A stretch of DNA of 64,000 nucleotides from Candidatus Campbellbacteria bacterium (lineage in GTDB: Bacteria > Patescibacteriota > Minisyncoccia > Phycocordibacterales > EsbW-18), in the NCBI GenBank assembly GCA_024653945.1, contig JANLIT010000003.1, positions 98,936 to 162,935 of the forward strand. Reading direction: 5' to 3'. Every line of letters starts with the position of its first letter. Positions within the stretch are counted from its first letter, which is position 1. The translations under genes and the position numbers were made by a program. Shown here piece after piece: positions 4,399 through 21,497 of the stretch. Under the pieces are notes generated by a model. That model saw nothing but the letters and a program-made list of their open reading frames with translations. It ran no database searches and had not been told where the DNA came from.

Positions 4399-5442
4399 TT
4401 ATTTTTTTGTGGAATCAATAATCGCAAGTTCAAGTGGTAGGTGTGGAAGATACGCGCGGGAGATAGCCGTGTGTACATCAAGAAATCGCAAGAGTGTTGC
4501 TGATGTAATATGCGGAGGTTGTGCATTAGCACATTCTTCCAAAAGAGTGATGTCTTCCGCCAAAAATTCTTCACCAAACTGTTTTTTCATATCTGGGGCA
4601 TACCGCAACAATAAAACTGCACGTAATTTCTCTAGTAGAAGTTTGCTCAATACATTCATATCCACACCTTCATGTGATGCTTTCTGTAATGCATCAAGTC
4701 CTTTTTTGGGATCGCCCGTGTGAAGTGACAACACAATATCATTTACATACTCACCACGAGGAGCTGATGTAATGAGCGATACCTCTTTAACGCTCACTTT
4801 TTTGTCTTTGGAGGCGTACAAAATTTTCTGCAGAATGCCATTCGCGTCACGAAACGATCCTTCAGCAAGAAGTGCAATCAAATCCCCTGCTGCATGTTCA
4901 AGAGTAAAGCCTTCTTTTTTTGCAATGGTAGCAACATGATCTTTCAATATCTGACGCGTTGGTTGTTTGAAGGTGTGTACCTCACATCGAGAAACAATCG
5001 TATCAAGAATTTTATGGAGTTCCGTTGTTGCAAGAATAAAAATAACGTGTGCAGGTGGTTCCTCAAGAGTTTTAAGTAAGGCATTTGATGCTTCCTTCGT
5101 AAGCATGTGTGCTTCATCAATGATGTATACCTTGTAGGGAGAGTTGAATGGGAGTGTGGCAACCGCATCTCGAAGAGCTCGTGCATCATCAACACCGCGA
5201 TTACTTGCTGCATCAATTTCATAAAGATCTGTGTCCTGTGTCCCCACCGCACGAGCAAAAATACGCGCAACGGATGTTTTACCTGTTCCCCGTCCACCTG
5301 TAAAAAGATAGGCGTGTCCAATGTGTTTTTGTTCAAGGGCACCCTGAAGTGCCTTAACCACATGGTCTTGCCCGCGAACCTCCTCAAACTCTTGTGGGCG
5401 ATATTTTCTATACAGGGCTACATTGTTCATATATAGAGACAT
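4399..5442 (-). CDS. dnaX: DNA polymerase III subunit gamma/tau (short form)
   Basis: ALYRKYRPQEFEEVRGQ; Walker A GGRGTGKTS; IIDEAHML; SRC box. Confidence 0.85.
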   Translation of the reverse strand: MSLYMNNVALYRKYRPQEFEEVRGQDHVVKALQGALEQKHIGHAYLFTGGRGTGKTSVARIFARAVGTQDTDLYEIDAASNRGVDDARALRDAVATLPFNSPYKVYIIDEAHMLTKEASNALLKTLEEPPAHVIFILATTELHKILDTIVSRCEVHTFKQPTRQILKDHVATIAKKEGFTLEHAAGDLIALLAEGSFRDANGILQKILYASKDKKVSVKEVSLITSAPRGEYVNDIVLSLHTGDPKKGLDALQKASHEGVDMNVLSKLLLEKLRAVLLLRYAPDMKKQFGEEFLAEDITLLEECANAQPPHITSATLLRFLDVHTAISRAYLPHLPLELAIIDSTKK

Positions 5443-16534: not shown

Positions 16535-16891
16535 CTACTCTTGGTTATTTAATTTGACCGCAGCTTCATGTGTGGAAACCGTTTTTCCCATAACAAACAT
16601 TTTGATAATACCTATAGCTATAACCCAGTAGACCAACATCGCAAGAAGGGTTGTCCATTCAAAAATACTTCCCTCAAGAAGATATGAGGCACGGAACACA
16701 CTGATAAACGGCGTTGCAAAGACATAGGTTATCCCGTACACAAAACTACTAAACCCAGCTTCTGGGTTCGCACCAAGTAATTTCAAAGCAAATCGAAACA
16801 ATAACAATATCTCAACAAAACCAAGAATGTACCAAACAATTTGTGTACCTCGGTACAGTGGTTTGGTTGTGGGAGAGTTAGATGAATCCAT
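16535..16891 (-). CDS. YggT-family membrane protein
   Basis: Two transmembrane segments with YggT-like pattern (GTQIVWYILGFVEILLLFRFALKLLGANP). Confidence 0.55.
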   Translation of the reverse strand: MDSSNSPTTKPLYRGTQIVWYILGFVEILLLFRFALKLLGANPEAGFSSFVYGITYVFATPFISVFRASYLLEGSIFEWTTLLAMLVYWVIAIGIIKMFVMGKTVSTHEAAVKLNNQE

Positions 16892-17227
16892 ATATTTTTG
16901 TCTGCAAAATGCAGAGATGTTACGCTTGTAATACAAGTACTAATAAAAATAAACCATAAGGTGTTGTTCGTGTCCAGTATACCACCTGATTTCACAAAAT
17001 CATATCGCGCAACTGTCGACTAGAGCGCGATAATACCTAGATTTTATCTCCAAAATGTATTGTAGGGGTTTCTTTTTGATATTTTGGTATTTGTTATGAA
17101 ACGACCCAACACACTTCTTGTTATTGCACGTAGTGTGGTTATTGTCCGACTTTTATCTTAATGAGTTTCCATAGAAAACCCTTGCTAAGATGGGCTTAGG
17201 TGTGGTTGTATACAGGTACAGCACACC

Positions 17228-18122: not shown

Positions 18123-18767
18123 ATGAATGCTTTGTTTCATAAAAAAGTGAAAACCCTCTCGGAAATAACCCCCAGTTTTTTCTTTATACAAATCGGCGCG
18201 AAAGGTGGGGGGTGGCCCGACCCTATTCGACGGTATGTTTTAAAATATAACTGGCAGGGGATTTTCGTGGAACCAATTCCCTATTGGTTTAAAAAACTCA
18301 AAAAAACCTATACCAATGCGCTGAATGTTTCTTTTGAAAATGTTGCAATCGCGGAAGAAAATACAAAACGTGTTTTTTACCATGTGCGAGAAAGTAATTG
18401 GTATCTCCGCCTTATTGGCGGATCTTTAAGCTCGTTCTCTAAAGAAAATATTCTGAAGCATGTGCGGTGGTGGCGCCCGCCAGGACTACGTTCAAATATT
18501 ATTGAAAGCACACTCAACTGTTTGTCTTTCAATACTCTCCTACAAAAGTATGGTGTTCAAAAAATAGATCTTCTTGTTATTGATACCGAAGGATATGATT
18601 TTAAAATACTCGCACAGGTACCTTTCAATAGAATTAGACCGTCTATGATTTACTACGAGCACAAACATCTAAGTGCCGAAGAAAAAACGGCTGGTGAAAT
18701 ACTTTTGAAATCAAACGGCTACCAATTTAAAAACGGGGTTCGAAACACGTTCGCTTGGACTAACTAA
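18123..18767 (+). CDS. FkbM-family methyltransferase
   Basis: IDLLVIDTEGYDFKIL (FkbM Methyltransf_21 signature). Confidence 0.65.
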   Translation: MNALFHKKVKTLSEITPSFFFIQIGAKGGGWPDPIRRYVLKYNWQGIFVEPIPYWFKKLKKTYTNALNVSFENVAIAEENTKRVFYHVRESNWYLRLIGGSLSSFSKENILKHVRWWRPPGLRSNIIESTLNCLSFNTLLQKYGVQKIDLLVIDTEGYDFKILAQVPFNRIRPSMIYYEHKHLSAEEKTAGEILLKSNGYQFKNGVRNTFAWTN

Positions 18768-18811
18768 TCACACTCTTTTCTTATCTTGGTGTGTGTTAAA
18801 CTCGTGTTTAC

Positions 18812-18850
18812 GGAGGCGTCGCATGGCGTCTTAGTGTGCAACGATTGTTC
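18812..18850 (+). pseudogene. Degenerate 5' half of a second tRNA-Ser (acceptor through anticodon stem)
   Basis: GGAGGCGTCGCATGGCGTCTTAGTGTGCAACG aligns 26/34 with the 5' half of tRNA-Ser(GGA); its acceptor 5' strand GGAGGCG is exactly complementary to the 3' fragment at 19045-19051. Confidence 0.5.
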
Positions 18851-18905
18851 CCGATTTACACACGAGTAAACCGAGCGTATTGTAAATCACAATCCCAGAT
18901 AAAGC

Positions 18906-18990
18906 GGAGGGTTCGCATAGTGGTCTAGTGCGCACGCTTGGAAAGCGTGTGTGCCGCAAGGCACCATGAGTTCGAATCTCATACCCTCCG
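18906..18990 (+). tRNA. tRNA-Ser (anticodon GGA), type II
   Basis: Acceptor GGAGGGU/ACCCUCC, anticodon stem CACGC/GCGUG with loop UUGGAAA, long variable arm, T-arm AUGAGUUCGAAUCUCAU. Confidence 0.8.
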
Positions 18991-18997
18991 CTTTGTG

Positions 18998-19052
18998 TGG
19001 GAGAAAGCGTGTGTGGGTCACACCACCGAGAGTTCGAATCTCTCCGCCTCCG
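18998..19052 (+). pseudogene. 3' half of a tRNA-Ser paralog (anticodon loop through acceptor); partner of the 5' fragment at 18812
   Basis: GGGAGAAAGCGTG-TGTGGGTCACACCACC-GAGAGTTCGAATCTCTC-CGCCTCC-G parallels the tRNA-Ser 3' half; the core TGTGGGAGAAAGCG recurs at 19133-19148. Confidence 0.5.
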
Positions 19053-19088
19053 CACCTGATGCAAAAATACCCCGCGAGGGGTATTCTT
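19046..19088 (+). other. Stable hairpin with GNRA tetraloop downstream of the tRNA-Ser fragment
   Basis: CCTGATGCAA-AATACCCC-GCGA-GGGGTATT-CTTTGTGTCAGG. Confidence 0.45.
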
Positions 19089-19241
19089 TGTGTCAGGAGG
19101 ACGAGATTCGAAAGGCGGAACATACACCTGCCGAGTGTGGGAGAAAGCGGCACAGTTAATAAACCAAGTGTTCAAACAATCCAAAAAATCGCCAGGTCGT
19201 TAGGCGTTCCAATGGAGGAATTATAAAATAATTTTTATTAT

Positions 19242-19703
19242 ATGTTGGTAAAAATTCACGTAGAGATAATTATTAATAATACGGCAAAAAATATAGCCGA
19301 CTACGCCTCTGATCCAGTTAACTGGACTGCCTCTAATCCAAAAGAGCACTTGGGATTGAAGTTTTATAATGACCAGAATCGTCCGGAGACAGGTGTAGAA
19401 TTTTATCAGAAAGAAATGGTTGCTGGACTCTACAATGATTTGAAGGGCCACATACAGTATGCGGATTTCCCTTCAATAACAGTTTGGCGGGGGCTCGCCA
19501 AATATAAGCTACTCGGTTCTTTTATAACCTTTCACTTAGCAGAGGGCGGCTTAGTAAGAATCGAAGAGAATGGTGGCGTCTCAAAAATGAGCCATGATTA
19601 TTACATTGATTTCCCTGATTCAATAATGGGCAAAATCCTTCACTGGTACTTTAATAAAAAAATGCGAAAGAGAAGCTATTTACCCATGGTGATAATGAAT
19701 TAA
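19242..19703 (+). CDS. SRPBCC-superfamily (polyketide cyclase/AHSA1-like) protein
   Basis: 153 aa; N-terminal pattern MLVKIHVEIIINNTAKNIADYASDPVNWTA is typical of SRPBCC ligand-binding folds; AT-rich codon usage. Confidence 0.4.
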   Translation: MLVKIHVEIIINNTAKNIADYASDPVNWTASNPKEHLGLKFYNDQNRPETGVEFYQKEMVAGLYNDLKGHIQYADFPSITVWRGLAKYKLLGSFITFHLAEGGLVRIEENGGVSKMSHDYYIDFPDSIMGKILHWYFNKKMRKRSYLPMVIMN

Positions 19704-19764
19704 AGTTTTTCAAAAAAGTATTAGACAGAAAATGATAGAATTTTTGAAATAATCTAAATATTTT

Positions 19765-21189
19765 ATGGATAATGCATGGCTTTCAATCTTACCCCCGATA
19801 ATCACCCTTGTTGCTGCGATTTGGTCAAAAAGAATTTTACCTTCGCTTCTGCTGGGCTTGTTGGTTGGCGGCTACCTGTTAAATCCTTCGATCGTAGGAG
19901 GACTGGAAACTGCCTTAGAAAAGGTAGTAGAGATATTATCTGATAAAGATAATTTGCAGGTGATATTGTTTCTATATCTGTTCAGCGGATTGATTGCTCT
20001 TATTAGAAAAGCGGGGGGCATCAATGCATTTTCTATTTGGGTCAGTAAATATGTAAAAAGTGAAACGGGAGTCTTTTACACTTTGTGGGCTTTGATCCCA
20101 GCTACTTTTATTGACTGTGCATTTAGGATTATAGGCACAGGTTCGATTATACGTTCGCTTGCCGAAAAAAATAAAGTCGTCAAAGAACGGTTGGCTTTTA
20201 TGATTAACAATACTGCTAGTCCGGTTATTGAGCTTATTCCAATCGCCACCACTTATGTAGGGTTTAACATAGCCAACATCGGTCAGGGACTAAAAGCTGC
20301 GGGAGTCTTTGAAGAACAATCCGCATACAAAATTTTACTTCAAGCCATACCTTTTGAGTTTTTTAGTATTGTGGTTCTGGTCATAACTTTTCTTACCATA
20401 TATTTTCAGTGGAAAAAGCCTTCTACCGAAAGACAAACAGACCACGCAAAAAAAGAAACCTCTGACGGAATGAATATGAATATGGAAGACGTCATGCCGG
20501 AAATAAAGCCACGGATAATTAACCTTGCAATTCCAATGCTAACAGTAATCTTTTTTAGTTTCTTTTTCTTCTGGTACTTTGGAAAAGCAGGGGGCGGAAC
20601 AGTCTCATCTATCATTGCCACCACGGAACCCAACAAGGCAATGTTAGTGGCTTTGTCTATCTCAGTAATCATTACCGGCATTATTTACTTTTTCCAAAAA
20701 TATTCCGTAAAAAAAATGACAACTGACATAATCTCGGGAGGGAATGAACTTATGAATATATTGGCTATCCTTATTGTGGCATGGTCTTTAGGAATGATTT
20801 CACAGGAATTAGGTTTGAGTAATTTCATTCAAGGGCAACTGGGGGGTTCCCTGCCCGCGTGGAGTATTCCTGTATCGCTCTTTGTTGTGGCCTCTGCCGT
20901 TACATACTTTATCGGCGAGGGCTGGGCTGCAGCTTCTTTAATTATGCCTTTTGCAATTTCTCTTGCCGTAACCGCTGGAGTAGGAATTCCAATTTGCGTA
21001 GCGGCGGTTATCACTGGGGGGACATTTGGAGATGTTACTTCACCTGTTGCTGGAATGACTAATATGTCATCCGATATAACTCGTGCCGATCATATTAAAT
21101 ATTTAAAATATGCCAGCCCGTATAATTTTACATCCGCAGGAATCGCCGCAGTTCTATTTTTAATAGCGGGGTTTTTTATTACCCAATAA
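19765..21189 (+). CDS. Na+/H+ antiporter NhaC-family membrane transporter
   Basis: 474 aa with ~11-12 transmembrane helices; NhaC-like N-terminus MDNAWLSILPPIITLVAAIW. Confidence 0.7.
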   Translation: MDNAWLSILPPIITLVAAIWSKRILPSLLLGLLVGGYLLNPSIVGGLETALEKVVEILSDKDNLQVILFLYLFSGLIALIRKAGGINAFSIWVSKYVKSETGVFYTLWALIPATFIDCAFRIIGTGSIIRSLAEKNKVVKERLAFMINNTASPVIELIPIATTYVGFNIANIGQGLKAAGVFEEQSAYKILLQAIPFEFFSIVVLVITFLTIYFQWKKPSTERQTDHAKKETSDGMNMNMEDVMPEIKPRIINLAIPMLTVIFFSFFFFWYFGKAGGGTVSSIIATTEPNKAMLVALSISVIITGIIYFFQKYSVKKMTTDIISGGNELMNILAILIVAWSLGMISQELGLSNFIQGQLGGSLPAWSIPVSLFVVASAVTYFIGEGWAAASLIMPFAISLAVTAGVGIPICVAAVITGGTFGDVTSPVAGMTNMSSDITRADHIKYLKYASPYNFTSAGIAAVLFLIAGFFITQ

Positions 21190-21296
21190 GTCGGATGTTT
21201 CCTTCTGGCAATAGAGAATAGTGGCTTTTAAAAACATAGTTAGATAAAATTACAAAAGATCGAAATAAATTTATCAAAATTAAAAAAATAAGAAAT

Positions 21297-21497
21297 ATGA
21301 ATTGTTGTGGAAATTTAAATAAATCAAATAGTGTGGAAAATCAGGTAGTCTGTCCGATAATGGGAAGTCCGGTTGATAAAGCAGAGGCGGAAAAAAGAGG
21401 GCTTGTTCGTGAATACAAAGGTGAAAAATACTATTTCTGTTGTAATGGTTGCCCGGAGAAGTTTGAGAAGAATCCAGAAAATTATACTAAAAATTAA
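21297..21497 (+). CDS. YHS/TRASH-domain metal-binding protein
   Basis: CPIMG...YKGEKYYFCCNGCPEKFEKNPENY matches the YHS motif. Confidence 0.75.
   Translation: MNCCGNLNKSNSVENQVVCPIMGSPVDKAEAEKRGLVREYKGEKYYFCCNGCPEKFEKNPENYTKN

Follow-up and report, generated by a model that had tools for sequence, protein, structure and literature searches.

Nested tRNA-Ser(GGA) genes in Patescibacteria point to a probable mobile cassette that replaces the resident tRNA at its anticodon

We analyzed a stretch of 64,000 nucleotides from a Candidatus Campbellbacteria bacterium (GenBank assembly GCA_024653945.1, contig JANLIT010000003.1, positions 98,936 to 162,935), called the window in the following, in which a complete transfer RNA (tRNA) gene for serine, tRNA-Ser(GGA), lies between the two halves of a former tRNA-Ser(GGA) gene. 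As far as a comparison of loci can show this, the resident gene was cut between positions 34 and 35 by a small cassette supplying a complete substitute, and members of the same cassette family appear to have entered different, non-orthologous resident tRNA-Ser(GGA) genes across Patescibacteria at G34|G35, at some loci repeatedly. The window represents successive generations of one gene at one site. For the arrangement as a whole we regard a mobile, self-compensating tRNA cassette, which would insert at G34|G35 and replace the resident tRNA in place, as the probable explanation, although a good deal of doubt is left.

The only tRNA called in this region by ARAGORN and Rfam is the inner tRNA-Ser(GGA) gene at 18906-18990 (plus strand, as are all features of the window unless marked otherwise), in which the anticodon loop has 7 nt and the variable arm is long, as is typical of serine. 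It passes the threshold of the Rfam family RF00005 with 55.8 bits versus a gathering score of 29, which confirms the intact gene described in a first-pass annotation of this DNA. The gene neighborhood includes relA/spoT, parB and miaA, and MiaA matches its counterpart in a metagenome-assembled genome of Candidatus Campbellbacteria at 100% identity. Upstream of the live gene, a decayed relic of the ancestral tRNA-Ser(GGA), positions 1-34, is found at 18812-18847. In an end-to-end alignment with the ancestral gene it has 31 matches, three mismatches and three one-base indels (six differences in 36 nt), and the alignment score of 38 compares with best scores of 20-26 in 30 shuffled windows. Downstream, a near pristine relic at 19003-19052 (nhmmer, E=3e-11) covers positions 35-73 from G35 to the discriminator base; it is identical at 50/51 positions to the intact gene of the related locus L001 (relatives carry L numbers here) and fully identical to the 3' relic of L174. 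The old gene is broken within its anticodon, between G34 and G35. Both relics have kept their acceptor strand, GGAGGCG (18812-18818) in the first and CGCCTCC (19045-19051) in the second; these strands pair with each other perfectly, and their sequence is not that of the GGAGGGT/ACCCTCC stem of the live gene.

An intact tRNA-Ser(GGA) with the GGAGGCG/CGCCTCC stem and the same variable arm is located directly 3' of miaA in L083, L082, L001 and L208, and the MiaA proteins of the first three are 77%, 79% and 60% identical to that of the window. The alignment to these intact relatives bears out two earlier proposals, namely that both fragments derive, as its halves, from a single former tRNA-Ser with the interruption in its anticodon loop and that their acceptor strands belong to each other and not to the intact gene. 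The halves had been placed at 18812-18850 and 18998-19052, which we corrected to the positions given above, and the interrupting insert with the functional tRNA, previously put at ~147 bp, has a length of 155 bp (18848-19002). The junctions read ..CGATTG|TTCCCGA.. on the left and ..GTGGGA|GAAAGCG.. on the right and have no common core. ARAGORN in intron and pseudogene mode, suggested earlier as a check, did not call the split gene in the native sequence, but it called a tRNA once the halves of the window had been joined in silico.

The end of the ancestral transcription unit is also preserved. A GNRA hairpin next to the 3' relic had been taken as part of an integration footprint. The hairpin is real (19063-19088, GCGA loop, T-rich tail), but the same hairpin follows the intact tRNA of L083, which identifies it as the native intrinsic terminator of the ancestral gene; it is also present after the outer 3' relic of L209. 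In L083 the intact gene is followed by this hairpin and by the same next ~50 nt as in the window (19053-19122), and the segment 19003-19122 is 95.8% identical to L083, with ~77% for the flanking genes.

The cassette itself is characterized by two helices. Its leader (18848-18905), for which homologous leaders exist in relatives, consists of TTCCC, the 8-bp hairpin H (18853-18860 with 18881-18888), the linker ACAA and the 5' strand of helix E (18893-18905). The 3' strand of helix E, GCTTTGTGTGGGA (18990-19002), starts with the discriminator base and ends at the right junction; it is part of an inverted repeat, I1, of 20 nt at 90%. Helix E lengthens the acceptor stem of the live tRNA by 13 bp, discriminator base included, and as its flanks pair, the two junctions are brought together. 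In minimum free energy folds the inner cloverleaf sits on top of the extended stem and the whole structure is closed by the outer acceptor stem. In the window 11/12 flanking pairs are formed (chance of at least ten: 0.002), and at least 10/12 pairs of an extension helix were detected in 6/104 distinct contexts, again at a chance of 0.002. All members of the cassette family have the same fold, i.e., a leader hairpin plus a helix of 12-25 bp by which the incoming tRNA gets a longer acceptor stem, and the leaders of L081, L142, L174, L117 and L161 are homologous to that of the window with compensatory changes. For H and E together, 89.9% of the cells are standard pairs compared to 73.2+-2.1% after shuffling, 14/22 pairs are changed on both sides compared to 7.3+-1.6, and the covariation score is 0.43 versus 0.16 for shuffled and 0.04-0.16 for slid strands; the strands were extracted by hand, which biases these values toward pairing and has to be held against our interpretation. 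Using gathering as well as permissive thresholds, Rfam detected nothing but tRNA in the window and seven related loci. The helices would insulate or process the inner precursor or, alternatively, belong to an insertion intermediate.

Relatives were collected by a metagenome scan for the tRNA family followed by a profile search. Half-tRNAs beside an intact tRNA-Ser(GGA) were found at no fewer than 15 loci, and the cassette at G34|G35 is present in at least seven, namely the window, L081, L142, L174, L175, L117 and L161 (partly eroded). L081 is a closed Campbellbacteria genome with the same nested arrangement and an inner tRNA identical to the live tRNA of the window. The arrangement was found again in a closed genome as well as in many independent assemblies, which excludes an assembly artefact. 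In L142 the types are reversed, with GGAGGGT in the outer and GGAGGCG in the inner gene. The outer gene of L117 is a classical bacterial-type tRNA-Ser with 61-69% identity to the other outer genes, which is callable once joined, and the inner tRNA of this locus is 94% identical to that of L142. The hosts carrying nested loci have a G+C content (GC) of 33-57%. Additional nested types exist in L119/L141, with a break at 31|32 and a 15-bp extension helix, and in L209/L210, with a perfect 12-bp helix of unrelated sequence. Layers are also evident: the live gene of L209 is surrounded by a pair of 5' relics and a pair of 3' relics, two 3' relics were found in L174, and the intact GGAGGCG gene of L083 is preceded by 5' relics in two layers, one of them of the GGAGGGT type. 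The reciprocal types, the non-orthologous outer genes and the other nested types argue that the cassette has probably moved.

The outer genes are at differing stages of decay, and the outer halves of L081, L142 and L174 are no longer callable as tRNA. In the window, L081, L142 and L174, the outer 5' relic is in each case altered in the anticodon-stem strand by the junction (..ACGATTG, ..TAATTG, ..AAGATTG), with differing acceptor ends. L081, with nested and decayed halves, and L083, with an intact gene, share ~95% identity as far as the tRNA promoter, are unrelated over the tRNA locus itself and have 76% identity on its far side. This collapse of identity indicates a recombination breakpoint and a polymorphic nested state, and the cassette is present in L081 and absent from its close relative L083. 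An ancient, fixed structure shared by relatives had been named as an observation that would speak against integration. L081 does have the identical arrangement, but equally close relatives have an intact gene, so that the structure is polymorphic and not fixed.

Several dead halves carry structural changes of their own. The D loop of the 5' relic in the window has mutated and now forms pairs with the acceptor strand of the same relic (18813-18820 with 18825-18832), the dead outer halves of the L119/L141 type are affected by a perfect palindrome, CCTGCCTGCCGGCAGGCAGG, which occurs twice in L119 (D loop and anticodon loop), and a hairpin of ~45 nt is inserted in the D loop of the outer 5' half of L174. 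Such palindromes and D-loop changes may keep the relics silent, as these would otherwise compete in folding with the live tRNA.

It is conceivable that no mobile element was involved and that tandem duplicates of tRNA-Ser(GGA), generated by unequal recombination or imported DNA, were eroded in such a way that the first copy lost its 3' half and the third copy its 5' half, with a complementarity of the flanks that is incidental or was selected later. Tandem copies do exist (in L120 an intact copy stands behind a full but degenerate one), deletion bias is strong in these genomes, and many relic types with other breakpoints are known, e.g., 41|42 in L122, L139, L146, L151 and L182. However, the same two endpoints (34|35) would be needed in seven or more loci whose host tRNAs differ, and neither the homology of the leader hairpins together with an extension helix abutting both junctions nor the reciprocal outer and inner types and the repeated nesting would be explained. 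We therefore consider this scenario quite improbable. The relics with the 41|42 break are a separate observation: L122, L139, L146, L151/L185, L182 and L202 have a conserved element resembling a 5' half, GGAGGGTTCGCATAGCGGTCTAGTGC-CGAAGGGA..GA-CTTGGAAAGCG with a T run behind it, which precedes the intact tRNA-Ser(GGA) by ~35-60 nt. It is kept in AT-rich genomes despite unrelated surrounding intergenic DNA, and this conservation suggests a function or gene conversion.

The first-pass annotation had explained the locus by serial integration and excision of the tyrosine-recombinase type. Such integration yields an intact hybrid gene together with a single displaced fragment, and the element has the same core at either end. 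Islands and prophages that integrate into tRNA genes reportedly have a sublocation in the anticodon loop (Williams, in 2002), and all tRNA-targeting mechanisms we know of use integrases that rebuild the gene from a matching half. In the window, the two native halves have both been displaced, the acceptor stem of the live gene is matched within that gene, and the complete foreign tRNA lies in an insert of 155 bp without a common core at the junctions, so that the assignment to a tyrosine recombinase is not supported. In a broader form, islands with an integrase would have integrated and excised repeatedly at an attachment (att) site in the anticodon loop of tRNA-Ser, leaving behind cores, fragments and cargo, and the integrase would have been lost. 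tRNA genes are the standard landing sites of genomic islands (PMC4383910, PMC9897764), and integrase islands (PMC4383910) share with the window the tRNA target, the break in the anticodon loop, the restored tRNA function, the displaced fragments and the variable cargo beside the gene. The cargo varies in every relative, L001 is nearly empty at this site, the window contains an exact 15-nt repeat, and a direct repeat of the tRNA 3' end is present ~150-180 nt 3' of the gene in L083, L085, L104, L208 and L209. L170 combines an intact tRNA and 1.2 kb of cargo with a displaced 3' half from position 34. Integrase islands, however, deliver only the matching half, whereas the cassette delivers a complete tRNA and both old halves are kept, complementary to each other and not to the live gene, and repeated integration of islands gives a one-sided tandem array in contrast to the nested layers formed by the cassette. 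Furthermore, the insert has conserved, covarying helices, 5' relics are as common as 3' relics, no tRNA fragment is located at the far end of the cargo, and no integrase was found in the cargo of the window or near any tRNA-Ser locus. Taken together, we regard integrase islands as an unlikely source of the arrangement.

The repeat deserves attention in this context, as its existence was confirmed but its proposed role as att core was not. The 15-mer GTGTGGGAGAAAGCG occurs in exact copies at 18995-19009, spanning the right junction of the cassette, and at 19135-19149, and these are the only two copies in 64 kb with up to three mismatches allowed, which means that the suggested search for the core further downstream ended without an additional site. 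The copies start 140 nt apart and enclose 110 nt (19010-19134) with the 3' relic, the terminator and the remnant of a downstream element; the cargo is outside. The second copy presumably marks a later rearrangement. A longer repeat around it, which might have included a decayed copy of the 3' end of the inner tRNA, was considered and rejected, because the stretch is homologous to the downstream element of L083.

Pfam found no tyrosine or serine recombinase among the open reading frames (ORFs) of the window between 13023 and 24540, in agreement with the previously stated lack of an integrase gene, and a scan for integrase motifs in 1.7 Mb of related loci, which has limited sensitivity, detected one Xer-like ORF that is not linked to tRNA-Ser. 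No integrase was located near any of the ~100 related loci. The tRNA pattern had no match in IMG/VR, BLAST against phage and plasmid collections returned generic tRNA similarity only, and a phage origin is therefore rejected. By inspection, the junction logic of integrons, Xer, serine recombinases or IS200/IS605-type elements does not fit both junctions. An origin as miniature inverted-repeat transposable element or other derivative of an insertion sequence was discarded as well: there is no target duplication at 18847/18848 and 19002/19003, and the terminal TTCC(C)/GGGA is short and not conserved in L142 and L174.

The position of the break and the pairing across the junctions would also be in line with an intron at the RNA level. 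In that case the insert would be removed from the outer pre-tRNA and the halves ligated, each transcript would yield two tRNAs, and the extension helix would be a splicing or processing signal. Bacterial group I tRNA introns use the position 34/35 as well (10.1101/2020.01.27.920355), and they have in common with the cassette a structured insert with joined ends, the recurrence in one gene family and the possible insertion of one insert into another (as twintrons). The helix juxtaposes the junctions, both helices covary, and the joined outer tRNAs of L117 and the window are still recognizable. In contrast to group I introns, the insert has no ribozyme core, no U-1 and no terminal (omega) G; the bases at the splice positions are G (18847) and A (19002) and do not correspond to the required U and G. 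With 155 nt, 85 of them tRNA, it is too short for such an intron, and the Rfam model Intron_gpI had no match in 18500-19500 even at E<=10. Archaeal split, permuted and intron-containing tRNAs (PMC4390854, PMC3978253) are comparable in that the tRNA gene is in two pieces and a helix by the break could hold them together, but here the host is a bacterium, a full paralog lies between the decaying pieces, and no bulge-helix-bulge motif is evident, as by inspection the junctions are at the boundary of helix and internal loop and not in staggered 3-nt bulges. The outer halves are decaying in the window (5' half), L081, L142, L174 and L175 and are therefore not under selection, the outer tRNA is redundant because the inner gene has the same anticodon, and there is no excess of G.U over A.C. 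An intron is highly improbable for these reasons.

Returning to the mobile cassette, the old halves are decaying relics, and the cassette appears to lack a promoter of its own, judged from the leaders compared here. An extended -10-like box, TGTGTTAAAC, read from the sequence at 18792-18801, is located 10 nt 5' of the 5' relic, and similar TGnTAtAAt boxes are found 6-12 nt 5' of the outermost 5' relic in L081, L142, L117 and L209. The box is the probable promoter of the dead outer gene and now likely drives the live tRNA. The live tRNA would be transcribed from the promoter of the dead gene through the 5' relic, and transcription would end at the dead gene's terminator; the use of the outer promoter is suggested by the -10-like box kept 5' of the outermost relic in most nested loci and by the lack of a plausible conserved promoter in the leader. 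Ordinary end-processing would then release the live tRNA. The anticodon loop may be broken at a specific site, or recognized, before the cassette enters, and because the cassette kills its target but brings the substitute, it would compensate its own insertion. Among related genomes it may spread by recombination with the conserved tRNA halves as arms; L117 has no flanking homology, so that recombination through tRNA arms by itself cannot explain every case. Later, gene flux would have added an FkbM gene upstream and NhaC/YHS cargo downstream, and the 3' relic and terminator of the window were probably refreshed from an L083-like donor. We assume this refreshing recombination because a decayed 5' half stands beside a pristine 3' half with 96% identity to L083, and because the GTGTGGGAGAAAGCG repeat brackets exactly that block.

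A number of observations weigh against this interpretation. The pristine 3' relic and the GTGTGGGAGAAAGCG repeat are explained only by an ad hoc later recombination. No enzyme, no excised form (its junction would read ..GTGTGGGA|TTCCCGATTT..) and no autonomous cassette were found, and the mobility is therefore deduced from the distribution only. The divergence of the spacers between the window and L081 (about 74%) equals that of the genomes, and in the lineage of the window the cassette could have been inherited vertically and lost later from L083 and L082, instead of being a recent gain. For some helices (L119, L209) homology to the type of the window is uncertain. G.U and A.C mismatches are about equally frequent in the helices and both strands fold about equally well, without asymmetry between RNA and DNA, so that the helices may act at either level. 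Finally, the leader contains a promoter-like match (TTTACA-17-TATTGT, 18855-18883), and given this match the cassette may have its own promoter. We did not adopt a cassette-internal promoter, as this single weak consensus match in the window and L081 is not kept in other family members.

The only candidate enzyme so far is the GIY-YIG nuclease encoded upstream of such tRNAs in other genomes. Free-standing homing endonucleases such as SegB of phage T4, a GIY-YIG protein in a tRNA cluster (PMC2988022, PMC13096335), offer a parallel, as small GIY-YIG genes abut tRNA-Ser(GGA) and tRNA-Leu(CAA) in related Patescibacteria, and by analogy a break and its repair as in homing would explain both the fixed breakpoint and the co-conversion of the flanks. 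Unlike in the homing case, the window has no GIY-YIG gene, and where such a gene is present, it lies outside the outermost relic and not within the cassette. The ORFs (PF01541, E=8.6e-17) were found by jackhmmer directly 5' of tRNA-Ser(GGA) on the same strand at 11 loci, among them L170:472-741, L137:2486-2761, L111, L138, L162, L105, L200, L161:3006-3293, L139 and L119:1-243. The frame usually enters the tRNA by 11 nt and ends with the TAG of GCATAG. Three additional loci have GIY-YIG ORFs at tRNA-Leu(CAA) (L030, L049 and L065), so that 14 of the 19 GIY-YIG ORFs in 1.7 Mb abut tRNA-Ser or tRNA-Leu. They are more common at relic-bearing loci (~5/17 versus 6/87).

The region 3' of the tRNA contains further conserved elements. 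In the window, a truncated element with homology to L083 (19053-19134) contains, with GGAGGACGAGATTCGAA at 19096-19112, a complement of the tRNA's T-arm and acceptor 3' strand, and lacks the second copy of the tRNA 3' end present in L083, L085, L104, L208 and L209. The full element in these five loci (~145-190 nt; L083:2837-3000, L208:4004-4190, L209:4242-4385) consists of the terminator hairpin, a strand GGAGGAC-GAGATTCG complementary to the T-arm and acceptor 3' strand of the tRNA, internal hairpins with some covariation and, for a second time, the final 17-21 nt of the tRNA. The element has no match in Rfam and could be a miniature integrated element or an uncharacterized RNA. Directly before the first cargo gene, a 76-nt conserved non-coding element (19161-19235) is 91% identical to one in L177 (reverse complement of 5239-5314). 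In both contexts it lies 3' of tRNA-Ser(GGA) and directly before the start codon of ORFs that are unrelated to each other; its role at the cargo boundary may be that of a portable promoter or leader.

The lineage-specific cargo (19242-21497) comprises a 153-aa ORF, an NhaC-type antiporter (19765-21189) and a YHS-domain protein (21297-21497). The last two had been named correctly according to Pfam, whereas the first ORF, described as SRPBCC, has no match to any Pfam family including SRPBCC. The region had also been called an AT-rich islet, which does not hold, as its GC of 0.395-0.402 equals that of the flanks (0.39-0.41). The NhaC/YHS cargo is absent from the same position in L001, L081 and L083 and has no homologs among the fetched loci. 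The cargo after the tRNA is different in every relative, with unrelated genes that occupy ~2.8 kb in the window but ~5.7 kb and ~1.3 kb in L081 and L083, respectively, and in the near-empty site of L001 a conserved block of a 127-aa protein and an M48 peptidase follows ~200 bp after the tRNA. The comparison with relatives recommended in the first-pass annotation thus provided a near-empty site (L001) as well as intact genes (L083, L082), and the view of the locus as an insertion hotspot is supported. On the other side, a gene for an FkbM-family methyltransferase (18123-18767; PF05050, E=2.5e-19) is inserted specifically in the window between miaA and the tRNA locus. In L081, L082, L083 and L001 it is absent and miaA is directly followed by the tRNA promoter; no homolog was found in any fetched locus, and a lookup of the exact protein returned no record.

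A gene for a 133-aa protein (16535-16936, minus strand) lies between tRNA-Leu(CAA) and miaA in the window, and its homolog (75% DNA identity) is part of the variable cargo 3' of tRNA-Ser in L081 (L081:13023-13382), which indicates that genes shuffle between two tRNA-flanked variable regions. In L170 (811-2072) an intact tRNA-Ser(GGA) is followed by 1.2 kb with a 337-aa ORF without family match and by the displaced 3' half from position 34, i.e., a one-gene island with the same anticodon breakpoint and no integrase. Most Paceibacteria-like relatives (L003-L080) have tRNA-Trp(CCA) after miaA, and tRNA-Ser(GGA) is found there only in the Campbellbacteria-like subgroup; in many other lineages it follows the gene of an M48 (HtpX) peptidase. 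The orientation is inverted in L206/L207.

A bolder version of the proposed mechanism appears possible, but we put it forward tentatively and with more doubt than confidence: a selfish tRNA cassette without recombinase gene would home into G34|G35 of a homolog, destroy and replace it in one step, take over the resident promoter and terminator, regenerate its own target and stack in layers. Targeting might be achieved by pairing of the cassette 5' end (UUCC, a serine codon plus one base) with GGAA of the anticodon loop, and the helix extending the acceptor stem could be part of an insertion intermediate, either as product of snap-back priming or as substrate of a structure-specific nuclease, and not a processing signal. 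When the literature was searched for nested and interrupted tRNA genes in Patescibacteria, reports on displaced tRNA fragments were found, but none of a complete tRNA nested between the halves of its predecessor. Recurrent in-place replacement of tRNA genes in Patescibacteria is apparently a mode undescribed so far.

For genome annotation the locus type is a hazard, since standard tRNA finders miss half-tRNAs and nested genes. The locus is also a source of gene flux, with cargo gained to the left and right of the tRNA. A whole replacement tRNA has been put recurrently into the anticodon of the resident gene in the reduced Patescibacteria genomes, with no recombinase evident, and the GIY-YIG genes fused to type II tRNA genes give an enzyme lead tied to this locus type, so that it can now be asked what recognizes or cuts the DNA of a tRNA gene at 34/35. 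If the cassette is truly mobile, it would be a minimal element that compensates its own insertion, and it would show how essential single-copy tRNA genes can be swapped horizontally.

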